Source of the DNA: Candidatus Iainarchaeum sp.
GTDB taxonomy: Archaea; Iainarchaeota; Iainarchaeia; Iainarchaeales; JAFGBZ01
Reading direction: 5' to 3'
Length of the DNA stretch: 37,216 nt
Assembly: GCA_043817715.1 (NCBI GenBank)
Contig: JBDRGO010000030.1
Location: 1 to 37,216, forward strand
In this document: in pieces, positions 1,851 to 28,718 of the stretch
Layout: each line of letters starts with the position of its first letter
How positions within the stretch are numbered: the stretch's first letter is position 1
Made by a program: the position numbers and the translations under genes
The notes under the pieces: generated by a model
The model's input: only the letters and a program-made list of their open reading frames with translations
Told to the model about the DNA's origin: nothing
The model's database searches: none

Positions 1851-1909
1851 TTAAGCCCTGTTGAGCAATAGCGAAACAGTGCACGCATGCCAACTGGGCG
1901 AGACAGTTG
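1851..1909. other. Structured repeated element, copy A (candidate ncRNA or ssDNA element)
   Basis: Shares TTAAGCC, TGCAC[G/A]CATGCCAAC and G[C/T]GAG..GTTG with 15446..15512, with compensatory changes. Confidence 0.55.
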
Positions 1910-2954: not shown

Positions 2955-3875
2955 ATGGGTTTAGAACTAAATGTTTTTGATATTGAAAAAGACTGGCTTG
3001 ACAAAAACCTCTTTATTGGGGGAATTAAAGAAGAATTAAAAGAATTAATTGATTATCTAGGCAAAACAAAAAAAGCCTCAGAAATCACAAGGGTTTCTTA
3101 TGATTGTATAAAAGAAGCTCTTTTAGGAAGAGCCCCAATTAACCTCAAAAAATTAAGTATTATATTAAATTCCGTTCCAGAAGGGCTAAAAGAAAAAACA
3201 ATTCAAAAAATTAAAAATAAAAAAACCAGTTATTCGGTTCAAAAAAGCAACAAGAAAATATTTTTTCCTGCAGCATTAAACGAAAATTTGGCTTATATTA
3301 TAGGAGTCATTTTAGGGGATGGGCATTTACATTCTAATAAAAATAACAAAAAAGGAAATTGGACTATTTGCGTTTATTTTGACAACTATTGCCACATGAA
3401 AAAATATAATAAAATTATAAAAAATGAGATTGGAATTAAAGCAAAAATCAATAAAGAAAAGAACTGTTTCAATTGCTATTTTTGTTCAAAAGCAATTCAT
3501 TGGTTTTTTATGTCCTTTTTTAAATTAGTTAATGGAGCTAAATTTGATAAAATAATAATACCAAAAAGAATTATTGATTCAAAAAACCGAAAAATAATTA
3601 ATTCCTGCATACAGGGCTTGTTTGATTCAGATGGAACAGTAACAAAAAGATATGCGGGATTTTCAAGCACCAGCAAAAAAATAGTTAATCAAGTGCATTT
3701 GATTCTGGAAAAACAAGGAATAAGCCCAAAGAAACATAAGTGGCTCAAAAACAAGAAATATAAAATGCTTTATTCTACAAGAATCGGAAACAAAGAAGGA
3801 ATTAAAAAATTCCAGAAAAAAATCGGTTTCAGGCATCCGGTAAAAAAGGAAAGGTTAAATACCTTACTTAACTAA
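2955..3875 (+). CDS. Free-standing double-motif LAGLIDADG endonuclease-like protein with putative N-terminal HTH
   Basis: Motifs LAYIIGVILGDG and CIQGLFDSDG, intervening GAK..IIIP lysine block, C-terminal F..KIGF.HP.K. No HINT/intein splicing residues. ATG at 2955 (TTG alternative at 2943). Confidence 0.88.
   Translation: MGLELNVFDIEKDWLDKNLFIGGIKEELKELIDYLGKTKKASEITRVSYDCIKEALLGRAPINLKKLSIILNSVPEGLKEKTIQKIKNKKTSYSVQKSNKKIFFPAALNENLAYIIGVILGDGHLHSNKNNKKGNWTICVYFDNYCHMKKYNKIIKNEIGIKAKINKEKNCFNCYFCSKAIHWFFMSFFKLVNGAKFDKIIIPKRIIDSKNRKIINSCIQGLFDSDGTVTKRYAGFSSTSKKIVNQVHLILEKQGISPKKHKWLKNKKYKMLYSTRIGNKEGIKKFQKKIGFRHPVKKERLNTLLN
3849..3864 (+). promoter_or_regulatory. Putative BRE/TATA promoter of tRNA-Gln, embedded in the LAGLIDADG 3' end
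   Basis: GAAAGGTTAAATACC: purine-rich BRE plus TTAAATA about 27-33 nt before the tRNA 5' end. Confidence 0.5.
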
Positions 3876-14083: not shown

Positions 14084-15391
14084 TTATTCTGGTGCAAATT
14101 CCTTTGAAATCCTTGCATTAAATTCCCCTGCAATATTTTCAAGTAACATTTCTTTTGCTTTTTTTGAATAATTACCTAAAAGCCATGCAAGTTTAATATA
14201 AGCTGTTTCGGAAAGCATGTCATCAGAAAAAATTATTCCTATTTCTTTTAATCTTCTTAAATTAGTGTAAACCTGTGAACTTGTCCTGCCATAAATGCAT
14301 TGAGTAGCCATTACAACAATTGTCCCTGATTTAATTAATTTCTTTAATGCCTCATAATTTGGCAAATTTTCTTTTATATTAGTTGGAGCATGACCAAAAG
14401 CAGTTCCCTCTAAAACCAATCCATTAAATTTATTTTTTCTGTAAAAATCAAATTCTTCAGGATACATATTTGGCCTGATTTTAAGGATTGCAACTTTTTC
14501 TCCAAACTTATTTTTTAATTCCAATTTGTTTGAAGAAGATTTTTTTGAATAATCTTTTTTCAGATACCCGATTTTTTTTTCAGCATAATTCACCCTTGCA
14601 ATCGGCAGATCATTTATTGCTTTAAACGCATCTCTTCTTGAAGTATGCATTTTACGCGTTTTTGTTCCAGGCAAAATTAATGCATTGCCGTCATTGATAT
14701 TTTCATGCATGCATATTCCCACTCCGCAAAAATCGGTTTTTGAAATAAAATAAGCTGCATTCAATAAATTTTCAGCCGCATCAGTGCTTGGCCTGTCAGT
14801 TGAACGCTGTGAACCTACAATCAAAACAGGAATATTTAATCCCTGCAATGCAAAACTTAATGCAGCAGAAGTATAAGCCAATGTATCTGTTCCATGCCCG
14901 ATAATTATTCCTGAATAATTTTTGCTTTCATCAAACACCGCTTTTGAAATTTTTGTGTAATAGCTGAAAGTCATGTCTTCTGACATTATGTTTGAAACTT
15001 TTTTTGTTTCAACCTGCGCAATTTCAGTTATTTCAGGAATTAATTTAATCAAATCCTCCGGCTCATATGAGGCAATTACCCCGCCCAAAGAATAATCAAC
15101 TTTTGATGCAATTGTTCCGCCTGTATGCATTACCAATATTTTCGGCAGTCCCTTATTTGAAGAAAGATTTATTTTTGACTTTTCGGTGCTTTTTTTTCCG
15201 GAAGAAATTTTTTTAATTTTCAATTCATTTAATTCAGCAAATCCTGCATTGTAGCCATTATCAAACTTTAAATTAATTGAATTTGAAATTGAGGGAATTA
15301 TTGTCCCGACAGATTTTTTTTCTTTTGATTCAATTTCAACCCTGTCTCCCGCGGAAACCTTGTGCTTTTTTAAAAATTGCTCAGAATCCAT
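14084..15391 (-). CDS. gatD: Glu-tRNA(Gln) amidotransferase subunit D
   Basis: TGGTIAS.VDY..GGV, HGTDT, GSQRS.DRPS.DA, RKMHTSRRDAF; N-terminal K.DNGYN.G domain. Confidence 0.97.
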   Translation of the reverse strand: MDSEQFLKKHKVSAGDRVEIESKEKKSVGTIIPSISNSINLKFDNGYNAGFAELNELKIKKISSGKKSTEKSKINLSSNKGLPKILVMHTGGTIASKVDYSLGGVIASYEPEDLIKLIPEITEIAQVETKKVSNIMSEDMTFSYYTKISKAVFDESKNYSGIIIGHGTDTLAYTSAALSFALQGLNIPVLIVGSQRSTDRPSTDAAENLLNAAYFISKTDFCGVGICMHENINDGNALILPGTKTRKMHTSRRDAFKAINDLPIARVNYAEKKIGYLKKDYSKKSSSNKLELKNKFGEKVAILKIRPNMYPEEFDFYRKNKFNGLVLEGTAFGHAPTNIKENLPNYEALKKLIKSGTIVVMATQCIYGRTSSQVYTNLRRLKEIGIIFSDDMLSETAYIKLAWLLGNYSKKAKEMLLENIAGEFNARISKEFAPE

Positions 15392-15445
15392 TTAAATCAA
15401 TACAAATAGGAAAGAATGCTTTAAATTCTTTTTTCTTTAAAACAA

Positions 15446-15512
15446 TTAAGCCATATTTGCGAAGCAAGCACTGCTGAAAGCATTGCACACATGCCAACAA
15501 AGTGAGCCGTTG
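15446..15512. other. Structured repeated element, copy B
   Basis: Homologous to 1851..1909; lies in the divergent gatD/fbp intergenic region. Confidence 0.55.
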
Positions 15513-15558
15513 ATTTAAATTCTTTTTTGCTCTAATAAAATCGGTTGAGGGCAAAAAA

Positions 15559-16467
15559 ATGGAAAAAAGCATTACATTAGAACAGCACTTAAAAGACGCC
15601 GATTCAGGCATTAAAGAACTGATTTTACTGATTGCAAAAAATTCAAGAAAAATCAATAAGGCATTTGAAACACAATATGGCTATACCTGCACTAAAAACT
15701 CTTACGGAGAAACACAGATTGCATTGGACAAGTATGCAGACCAACTGCTGATTAAAGAGTTTGAAAAATCAAAATTAGTAAGAACAGTTGCTTCAGAAGA
15801 ACAGGATGAAATAATTGAAATAATCAAGACAAAAGGCGAATTCGGCATTACTCTGGATCCATTGGATGGTTCAGGCTGCATTAACACAAATCTTTCAGTC
15901 GGAACAATTGCAGGAATATTTAATGAAGGAAATGTAATGGAAAAAGGAAATAAAATGGATGCAGCCTGTTATGTTTTGTATGGCCCAATTACTTCATTTG
16001 TTTACTCTGCAAAAAATGGATTACATGAATTTTTAATGAATTCAAAAGGAAAATTTATTCTAAAAAAAGAAAACATACTTATTCCTGAAGGAAAAATTTA
16101 TTCACCTGGAGGATTAAGAAAAGATTATTTTCCTAAACACAAAAAATTAATTGAAGAATTAGAAAAAGAAGGATTCAAATTAAGATTTTCTGGTTCATTT
16201 GCTGCTGATTTTAATCAAATACTTTATTATGGCGGAATTTTTACTTATCCTGCAGTAAAAACTCAACCTCAAGGAAAACTTCGTTTATTATTTGAAGCAA
16301 ATCCAATGAGTTTTTTAATTAAAGAAGCAGGAGGAGATTCTTCAAATGGTTATGAAAAAATTCTGAATATAAAACCTGAAGCATTAAATCAAAGAACTCC
16401 TTTATATCTTGGAACAAAAAAATTAATTAAAAAAACTGAAAAAATTTTTAGGAGGAATAACAAATGA
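15559..16467 (+). CDS. fbp: Fructose-1,6-bisphosphatase class 1
   Basis: N..GE.Q..LD, ASEE, LDPLDGS, VGTI.GI, YGP, GKLRLLFEANPM. Confidence 0.95.
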   Translation: MEKSITLEQHLKDADSGIKELILLIAKNSRKINKAFETQYGYTCTKNSYGETQIALDKYADQLLIKEFEKSKLVRTVASEEQDEIIEIIKTKGEFGITLDPLDGSGCINTNLSVGTIAGIFNEGNVMEKGNKMDAACYVLYGPITSFVYSAKNGLHEFLMNSKGKFILKKENILIPEGKIYSPGGLRKDYFPKHKKLIEELEKEGFKLRFSGSFAADFNQILYYGGIFTYPAVKTQPQGKLRLLFEANPMSFLIKEAGGDSSNGYEKILNIKPEALNQRTPLYLGTKKLIKKTEKIFRRNNK

Positions 16468-27434: not shown

Positions 27435-28718
27435 ATGAATAAGGAAACAATTATTATATTGCTGATTTCAGCATTATTGGTTCTGCCTAATGTTACGGCA
27501 ATCACTGCATTGGATGCAGTAAAATATGTAAATGAAGAAAATGATTTTCTTTTAAGCGGAGAAACAGTTGAACAGCCTGTTTCGCCGATTACCGTGGAAA
27601 AAGAAGACTTTTGGGCAGTTCCGGTCATTTACAATGAAACAATTTCAACTTATTTTGTGCTGGAAACAGATGCAAAAAAAATTTCTGAAAGCGAAATAAA
27701 GAACAGGCAGGCAGTTTCAATAAGCCATTTTTTAAGGGAATTGATTGGCTTAAGGCAGAGGTTTTCTGAATCGCTTTCAAATGAATGGATTGTTTCAAGC
27801 AATGTTTCAAGATTTTTTTCCTCAGTTACGCAGGTAATTGACAACGAATTTTTTGAAATGAATTTAATTGACACGGAAATGGACAGTACGGAAATAACTG
27901 CAAAAATTTCTTTAGTAAAGCAAAAGCTTTCGCTTCTTTCATCCAAAAGCACCCTTATTTCCAATGCAATCACTGAAACAATCCAGATGGAAAACGATTT
28001 TATTATTCAGCCAAGCGACGAAAAAATGAATGCATTGCTTGAATCCCTGAAGGAAATTTTCGCTGAAATTGATGAACTGAATTCAATCATTCCCCAGTAC
28101 TCAGCAAAAGTAAATGAATTAAAGCAGGTAATTTCATTAAGCGGGCATGAAAACGCGGCTGCAATGATAAAGTATGCAAATTCCCCTGACGAATTCACTT
28201 CACTGAATAAATACATCAATGATGCGGATACAATGAAGCAAAACATTGATTCAATCCAATTAAGCATTTCAGGCAAAGTTGATACATTTCTGGAAATAAT
28301 GGATTCAAGAATCCAAAGAAATGAACTGCTGAAATTAATTAACAATGAAGACAGTGAAATAGAAAAAAAATTGGGGGAAAAATCCTCAATTACCAAATTA
28401 ATTAACACGATTCTGGATGAAAAAAACAAAGGCAAATGGAAAAAATTCACTGAAGCCGAACAGGCCGAAGCAAACTGGATAAAGGCAAACAGATATCTGG
28501 AAGAGGAAAAATTCACGCTGGCAAAAGAATATTACTTAAAGGCAAGGGACAAAGCAATTGAAGCATTTCAGGGAGGCCAGAATGCGCCCCCTAAAGAAAC
28601 CCAATTAACAGAGGAACTGGTAATTCAAATGGTTATTGTTTTAATTGTTTTACTTGCAGTAATTTATGTATTCAATAACAGGCAGAAATTTTTTCCAAAA
28701 GAAGAAGAGGAAGAATAA
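27435..28718 (+). CDS. Secreted coiled-coil protein with C-terminal membrane anchor
   Basis: Signal peptide, long helical body, C-terminal TM and acidic tail. Confidence 0.8.
   Translation: MNKETIIILLISALLVLPNVTAITALDAVKYVNEENDFLLSGETVEQPVSPITVEKEDFWAVPVIYNETISTYFVLETDAKKISESEIKNRQAVSISHFLRELIGLRQRFSESLSNEWIVSSNVSRFFSSVTQVIDNEFFEMNLIDTEMDSTEITAKISLVKQKLSLLSSKSTLISNAITETIQMENDFIIQPSDEKMNALLESLKEIFAEIDELNSIIPQYSAKVNELKQVISLSGHENAAAMIKYANSPDEFTSLNKYINDADTMKQNIDSIQLSISGKVDTFLEIMDSRIQRNELLKLINNEDSEIEKKLGEKSSITKLINTILDEKNKGKWKKFTEAEQAEANWIKANRYLEEEKFTLAKEYYLKARDKAIEAFQGGQNAPPKETQLTEELVIQMVIVLIVLLAVIYVFNNRQKFFPKEEEEE

Follow-up and report, generated by a model that had tools for sequence, protein, structure and literature searches.

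Several kinds of small repeats occur in prokaryotic genomes, including MITEs, REP/BIME repeats, Correia elements and RPEs, as tens of short, gene-less, hairpin-forming and mostly intergenic copies whose presence or absence differs between relatives; some RPE copies lie inside RNA genes. MITEs combine terminal inverted repeats with a short target duplication of fixed length, and IS200/IS605 elements insert without target duplication. The SINE-like elements of eukaryotes, which move by target-primed retroposition, are structured, non-coding and linked to tRNA genes, and their insertions have one precise end, a variable tail and target duplications of variable length; to our knowledge, nothing of this kind is known from archaea. 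For archaeal tRNA introns, work by Fujishima et al. in 2010 reportedly considers a proposed origin by transposition or from mobile elements. A later study proposes that archaeal bulge-helix-bulge (BHB) tRNA introns transpose or arise from mobile elements, and describes a 1.8-kb parent element that bears a recombinase (Sugahara et al, 2012; PMC3293823). How archaeal tRNA introns arrive remains open according to an Asgard preprint of October 2026 (bioRxiv 10.64898/2026.10.13.758758).

We analyzed a 37,216-nt stretch of DNA (hereafter the window) from the 1.14-Mb genome of a DPANN archaeon of the Iainarchaeota (genome G000; 33% G+C, with an archaeal-type RNase P RNA), in which an initial annotation had described two copies, A and B, of a structured element with a possible pseudoknot. 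Our results indicate that both stretches are likely copies of a mobile element, 50-70 nt long and both non-coding and non-autonomous, that occurs in DPANN (Iainarchaeota) archaea. Both copies lie on the minus strand at the positions first given for them. Copy A (59 nt; 1851-1909) starts at 1909, the next base past the CCA of a tRNA-Ile(GAU) gene, as had also been noted: ARAGORN calls this gene, as tRNA-Ile(GAT), at 1910-1986 on the minus strand with a genomically encoded CCA at 1910-1912, and the Rfam tRNA model (71.7 bits) matches its body at 1913-1986, with the CCA outside. From 1909 down to 1851, copy A reads CAACTG-TCTCGCC-CAGTTG-GCAT-GCG-T-GCA-CTGTT-(12 nt)-AACAG-GGC-TTAA. Its first stem (P1) pairs 1904-1909 with 1891-1896 (CAACTG/CAGTTG), the predicted pseudoknot joins loop bases CGC (1898-1900) to GCG (1884-1886), the linker GCAT lies at 1887-1890, the second stem (P2) pairs 1875-1882 with 1855-1862, and the tail TTAA occupies 1851-1854. 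The frames flanking tRNA-Ile, at 1003-1812 and 2034-2858 on the minus strand, have no Pfam match, and the downstream one is highly acidic and lysine-rich at its start.

Copy B (67 nt; 15446-15512) reads, from 15512 down to 15446, CAACGG-CTCACT-TTGTTG-GCAT-GTG-T-GCAATGCT-TTC-AGCAGTGC-TTGC-TTC-GCAA-ATATGGCTTAA. P1 pairing is kept here as well (CAACGG/TTGTTG; 15507-15512 with 15495-15500), with two G.T pairs, and the predicted pseudoknot joins loop bases CAC (15502-15504) to GTG (15488-15490); the 3' triplet of the pseudoknot, GCG in copy A and GTG in copy B, begins four bases past P1. The second stem of copy B had been read as an AT/AT pairing around a variable insert. A second hairpin does exist, but we read it rather as a usual P2 (GCAATGCT-TTC-AGCAGTGC; 15479-15486 with 15468-15475) followed by an extra small hairpin, TTGC-TTC-GCAA (15457-15467), that is present in a sub-family; the tail ATATGGCTTAA follows at 15446-15456. 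Copy B is positioned in the promoter region common to two genes: downstream, a gatD-like gene (14084-15391, minus strand) with Asparaginase and GatD_N domains (Pfam PF00710, 1e-54; PF17763; PF18195), and, divergent from it, a fructose-1,6-bisphosphatase (FBPase) gene (15559-16467, plus strand; Pfam PF18913 and PF00316).

The element is far more numerous than the two copies first reported, at about 24-26 copies in the 1.14-Mb genome by covariance-model search. A 14-base core pattern with up to two mismatches has 19 matches in G000, against one for the reversed control. A covariance model (R1), built from eight genomic copies and searched against the whole of G000, gives 23 matches at E≤1e-4 and 25 at E≤1, and both window copies match it far beyond chance (copy A, 61.2 bits, E = 5e-13; copy B, 65.6 bits, E = 4e-14 over 15464-15512). 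Of 61 related genomes, 21 have a match to the same model at E≤0.01. A second, wider model, built from 52 matches, finds 26 matches in G000, 39 in its same-genus sister species (G001), 43 in G055 and 16 in G034 (E≤0.01).

Across the phylum, the distribution of the family is patchy. At E≤1e-4, 54 of 151 sampled genomes and 25 of 61 genera have a match; all sampled genomes of families f2 (7/7), f16 (3/3) and f24 (4/4) are positive, as are 19 of 25 in f10, while the model has no match at this cut-off in f3 (0/15), f27 (0/12), f30 (0/17) or f20 (0/13). These counts are lower bounds, as a divergent sub-type, fused to tRNAs, is present in three f30 genomes. At gathering scores, Rfam 15 recognizes three tRNAs in the window and no family on the element, and a search of four loci at E≤5 also places nothing on it, in agreement with the earlier remark that it fits no known riboswitch or ribozyme. 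Our full-text literature searches, to which subscription journals were outside coverage, returned no description of such an element.

We next examined the fold of the element. Its parts follow one order: a 6-bp P1, an H-type pseudoknot, a four-base linker, a variable P2 and a short GCTTAA-like tail. P1 and P2 are paired in 95.5% of cells across 51 distinct copies, and no shuffled control of 500 reaches this level; controls with the partner strand slid pair at 24-56%. Twelve of the 14 pairs are changed on both sides (128 cells in the same 51 copies). All of these figures, the paired fraction included, are inflated by an alignment that had been fitted to the model and by the kinship of the copies. 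With no Rfam match and a fold that covaries across these copies, the suggestion of an undescribed structured element is borne out.

The pseudoknot, first proposed from CGC/GCG in one copy and CAC/GTG in the other, covaries over the 51 distinct copies. It consists of three to six P1-loop bases paired with a stretch that starts four bases past P1. For each copy, we measured the longest Watson-Crick run that the P1 loop can form with the 11 bases following P1: the mean is 3.49 bp for cognate partners and 2.78 bp for swapped ones, with none of 5000 permutations reaching the observed total. The 3' strand starts at base +5 almost always, and the partners include CGC/GCG, CACGC/GCGTG, CAC/GTG, TCG/CGA, TTCG/CGAA, CTG/CAG, CCACTG/CAGTGG, ACACCT/AGGTGT and ACAGAT/ATCTGT. 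These comparisons argue that the H-type pseudoknot is real. Base pair 5 of P1 is the sole pair with which linker bases 3 and 4 covary (mutual information 0.75 and 0.90, respectively; 0/2000 permutations): the linker has AC in 9 of 11 copies with G-C at this pair, GG in 8 of 12 with C-G, and AT in 12 of 17 with T-A. Linker and base pair probably form a base triple, a pattern that linkage within sub-families could mimic.

Pairing in the element is nearly all Watson-Crick, with G.T in 12 and A.C in 5 of 684 cells. Since G.T pairs are so rare, the opposite strand or DNA could fold almost as well, and the comparison of G.T with A.C is a weak test of strand (12 vs 5 of 684 cells). Single-sequence minimum-free-energy (MFE) folding, which cannot model a pseudoknot, misses P1 and P2 (z-scores of -2.18 for copy A and +0.59 for copy B) and prefers other structures: for copy A, the nested model has -10.5 kcal/mol, against -18.6 kcal/mol for the MFE structure. 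Support for the fold is thus comparative. Within one genome, a single P1-pseudoknot module is joined to several P2 hairpins, implying faster turnover or recombination of the 3' hairpin than of the 5' module. The element is also found in arrays, whether tandem, nested or inverted, at C29:224-330 and C17:6338-6447 in G000 and at loci L080 and L082 in G001.

We then compared the two window loci with G001, whose flanking genes are about 75% identical to those of G000; it has empty sites at both. At the copy B locus, G001 carries ...ATAGAAAAAGAATTTAAA|CGGTTTC... once, where G000 has, in order, TTAGAGCAAAAAAGAATTTAAA, T, the element, TTGTT and TTAAAGAAAAAAGAATTTAAA. This comparison, together with local alignment of the flanks (score 32, where mismatched flank pairs have a 99th percentile of 28), indicates that copy B is an insertion with a target duplication of about 21 bp. 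The upstream copy of the duplication, TTAGAGCAAAAAAGAATTTAAA, lies at 15514-15535 and the downstream copy, TTAAAGAAAAAAGAATTTAAA, at 15420-15440 (both minus strand), and the downstream copy holds the TATA-like box of the gatD-like gene. At the copy A locus, the tRNA-Ile genes of G001 and of a further relative, G002, end in ...GCCCA and run into a T-rich trailer, with neither CCA nor element.

To survey flanking direct repeats, we set the threshold at a score of ≥28, the 99th percentile of 506 mismatched flank pairs. Eight of 23 copies in G000 reach it, and in seven the repeat adjoins the element, with lengths of 21, 22, 25, 25, 28, 29 and 62 bp; we discounted the eighth, at C18, as a distant low-complexity match. 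In the adjoining cases, the upstream copy of the repeat ends 0-3 nt before the first base of the element, and a 2-12-nt AT-rich linker lies behind the element tail in duplicated copies. G001 and G034 together have 8 of 42 copies at threshold, seven of them with repeats that end exactly at the element (20-45 bp), and one flanking repeat is identical at 41 of 41 positions. The 5' end of the element is always exact, while its 3' end has a short variable AT-rich tail.

The most informative of these insertions interrupts a coding frame. At C3:7181 in G000, the element follows codon 16 of a GHMP-kinase gene (Pfam), and the 62-bp duplication re-creates the ribosome-binding site and start codon. An insertion of this kind would be tolerable only if it and the duplication came together. 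The gene is mevalonate-kinase-like, and a decoy frame of about 40 codons that reads into the element is left at C3:7100-7300 (locus L025). As read from these sequences, the element spreads by copy-and-paste with target duplications of 20-62 bp, and we consider it very likely to be a mobile structured element.

All copies are non-coding and essentially intergenic, with mixed orientation to neighboring frames by crude ORF calls, and many of them lie at tRNA genes. Among the 26 matches in G000, two directly adjoin the 3' end of a tRNA and share its strand (copy A, and a copy at tRNA-Leu whose first CA is the last CA of the tRNA), three lie on the opposite strand 0-2 nt from a tRNA 5' end, three are inside tRNA introns, one each lies within 16 nt and 53 nt of a tRNA, and two are in RNase P RNA. 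A further tRNA-Ala fusion in G000 falls outside this 26-match position list. Searching 196 genomes of the order for a T-loop followed after 11-16 nt by the P1 pattern gave 25 hits, against one for the reversed control, in 18 genomes from 12 genera and at many different tRNAs. If the discriminator base is taken to lie 13 nt past the T-loop, 4 of these hits have the element starting at -2, 11 at +1 (always after T), 3 at +2 and 7 at +3. Copy A adjoins the single encoded CCA among 33 predicted tRNA genes of G000, and the remaining six 3-nt spacers are TTT, CTT, TCT, TAC, TTT and TCT; the CCA junction, one of 25, could thus be due to chance.

The element also forms the body of tRNA introns. The intron of tRNA-Ser(GCU), in both G000 and G001, consists of the element plus a tail and starts at position 37/38; by inspection, its tail, GTTGCAGNA, can form a 4-bp helix with the anticodon loop. 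A second tRNA, which we read as tRNA-Gly(UCC) and ARAGORN labels otherwise, carries two tandem copies in its intron. At both sites (C7:10584 and C17:6338) the intron tail could, by inspection, form the 4-bp central helix of a BHB motif at 37/38, which makes these candidate BHB introns. The tRNA-Ser(GCU) gene lacks an intron in 23 of the 196 genomes; family f3, with 22 genomes, contributes 19 of these, and in the 15 f3 genomes sampled the element model finds nothing. The window copies themselves are not such introns, since copy A falls outside the tRNA gene and copy B between genes.

RNase P RNA is a further site. This RNA measures 277 nt in G000 and 211 nt in G001, and in its P12 region a forward and an inverted element copy replace a 26-nt hairpin in G000. 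In G055, the RNase P match spans 529 nt and contains three element matches. The G000 gene (C23:6686-6962; locus L005:1367-1643) scores 73 bits, below the Rfam gathering score of 84.

The element thus resembles the small prokaryotic repeats in its tens of short, gene-less, hairpin-forming, mostly intergenic copies and their presence or absence between relatives, and resembles RPEs in lying partly within RNA genes. It differs from MITEs in that its ends, CAACNG... and ...GCTTAA, are not inverted repeats and its duplications are variable at 20-62 bp, and it differs from plain palindromic repeats by its predicted pseudoknot and probable triple. Unlike the small prokaryotic repeats, it joins by an exact 5' end to the ends of tRNA genes. 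With archaeal BHB introns it shares the intron bodies at 37/38, but most copies are not introns, lying also behind, in front of or far from tRNAs and with target duplications; and in contrast to the element of Sugahara et al (2012; PMC3293823), we see no recombinase-bearing parent. The likeness to SINE-like retroposition covers the precise end, the variable tail, the variable-length target duplications and the structured, non-coding nature of an element linked to tRNA genes, with one junction after a CCA that orthologues do not encode. The element has no A-rich tail, however, and no reverse transcriptase (PF00078) was found in any of five element-bearing genomes (75-96% complete, one of them 96%), in a search whose controls responded. 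If the element moves through RNA, this result would call for an unrecognised or borrowed polymerase, or for RNA-templated repair.

We weighed several other explanations against a mobile element. That copies A and B might be attL and attR of one 13.6-kb element integrated at tRNA-Ile is suggested by their arrangement as same-strand direct repeats with one at a tRNA 3' end. Two insertions elsewhere, C1:4315 in G000 and locus L085 in G001, have a further likeness to integrase attachment sites: at two different tRNAs, they share a T-arm geometry in which the last stretch of the tRNA is duplicated, from G53 to 6 nt past its 3' end. In those cases, however, the insert is 50-70 nt long and carries no integrase, and the duplicated sequence differs at all seven G000 sites and takes in promoters and coding starts, so that the element cannot carry it as an att site. 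For the window copies, about 24 further copies lie elsewhere, the tRNA sequence itself is not repeated and housekeeping genes are present at the interval's edge. Copy B is flanked by a target duplication of its own, and G001 shows a separate empty site for it; this site refutes the reading, to which we give practically no weight. Movement by a Y1 transposase, of IS200/IS605 or RAYT type, would make the copies ssDNA transposon ends or REP-like repeats, in line with their hairpin-rich, almost purely Watson-Crick pairing and with the two IS200/IS605-type Y1_Tnp genes (PF01797) of G000 at C20:9492-9842 and C29:7078-7329, both unlinked to the element. Y1_Tnp is also found in G002; it was not found in G001, G055 or G034, despite the 39, 43 and 16 element matches of these genomes, and the TnpB search gave nothing above cut-off. 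With Y1 missing from three element-rich genomes, and with adjoining duplications at 7 of 23 copies in G000 and 7 of 42 in G001 and G034, the element does not behave as a derivative of the PATE or REP/RAYT kind, and we regard this route as very unlikely. Of the initial suggestion of an ssDNA mobile-element end, mobility stands, through the empty sites and target duplications, and an IS200/IS605-type end does not. We saw no parent insertion sequence with a transposase beside any copy, and searches for three enzyme families gave no candidate for a mobilising enzyme.

An RNA that acts for itself or for its host would instead explain the conserved structure. A module that aids transcript processing, termination or stability, chiefly for tRNA 3' trailers, and spreads only secondarily would fit the strong conservation of secondary and apparent tertiary structure, the start of the element at -2 to +3 nt from the discriminator base in many different tRNAs, and its retention in the RNase P RNA of G000 and, in apparently three copies, of G055. 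The copies, however, are of mixed orientation to neighboring genes, three of 26 are inverted in front of tRNAs, and others, with target duplications, break into a coding frame and a promoter; the sister species lacks the element at the tRNA-Ile and gatD loci, and the model does not find it in whole families of the phylum sample. A host-serving module is accordingly improbable as the primary explanation. The more specific roles first put forward are not supported: copies in either orientation, in the GHMP-kinase frame and in RNase P RNA argue against both a dedicated tRNA-Ile trailer device and a cis-regulator of neighboring genes, and mixed orientation likewise argues against a simple promoter or terminator. 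Self-cleaving ribozymes often ride on repeats, and a new small ribozyme that cuts at its own 5' edge, freeing a tRNA 3' end or a 5' splice site, would account for an exact 5' boundary that coincides with tRNA 3' ends and with intron position 37/38, and for a compact pseudoknot fold. HDV-like/theta and pistol ribozymes have a family-specific nested pseudoknot topology and conserved core bases. By inspection, the topology of the element is unlike HDV-like or pistol folds, and its P1 loop of 6-7 nt cannot hold the P2 and P3 strands of an HDV fold; in addition, invariance is rare among the unpaired bases, a search at E≤5 matches no ribozyme family, and at many copies cleavage would serve nothing. 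We hold a ribozyme to be still less probable than a host module.

For the mobile element that we favor, a route can be proposed. On this reading, copy B landed in the promoter region common to the gatD-like and FBPase genes, duplicating about 21 bp, and copy A directly behind tRNA-Ile. At tRNA genes the element may be co-transcribed and cut at the base of P1 by tRNA-processing enzymes: copies that follow a tRNA would be cut by RNase Z, those at 37/38 by the splicing endonuclease, and those inverted in the 5' leader by RNase P. Cutting of this kind would leave a single-stranded copy fixed at one end; the variable 3' tail would stem from a variable terminator. A putative enzyme, with the pseudoknot-triplex as its recognition handle, might then copy this strand into DNA at staggered breaks. 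Landing at 37/38 with a tail able to form a bulge-helix-bulge would produce a tRNA intron.

As for the nature of the single strand, we lean, weakly and tentatively, toward an intermediate whose ends are defined at the RNA level. The encoded CCA is what copying from a mature tRNA would leave, and it hints at RNA because it is absent from the G001 and G002 orthologues and is the only one among 33 genes. A DNA-only route, in which a structure-specific nuclease or recombinase acts on folded single strands, is nearly as probable, and it fits because G.T pairs are nearly absent; some weight is left for other routes. The full RNA-mediated scheme is rather unlikely: here an element co-transcribed with tRNAs would be cut by RNase Z, splicing endonuclease or RNase P and recopied by a polymerase through its pseudoknot-triplex, creating both BHB introns and RNase P RNA insertions.

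The element occurs as one 50-70-nt unit in four states: a free insertion with an empty site in the sister species, an exact tRNA 3' fusion, an exact but inverted tRNA 5' fusion and the body of tRNA introns at the canonical position. These four states make the gain of tRNA introns testable in a concrete system, and the element may help to explain the origin of archaeal tRNA introns. The RNase P RNA case indicates that functional RNAs can absorb mobile structured modules, and long, variable duplications without a recognisable transposase or reverse transcriptase point to a non-textbook way of moving. Were the RNA-mediated scheme true, archaeal intron gain would have a natural agent in this element, which would also be the first retroposon of SINE-like type outside eukaryotes. 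For annotation, it accounts for odd duplicated gene starts and promoters, and for tRNA genes missed by finders in DPANN genomes.

Two further observations concern the surroundings of element copies. A second small hairpin repeat, CGAGGGGAAACCCAGGTTTTCCCCT-like, lies beside copies of the element and in front of a tRNA, at C87:~3610-3700, C71:~27640-27670 and C7:10530-10545 in G000 and at loci L073 and L074 in G001; it appears to be a separate family of hairpin modules. At C7:51356-51615 in G000, a region with no Rfam family at E≤0.1, a GC-rich segment that could pair over long range is enclosed by two element copies spaced 150 nt apart, and a 21-nt motif, GCGGTTTCAGCCTGCCCATCA, is repeated four times.
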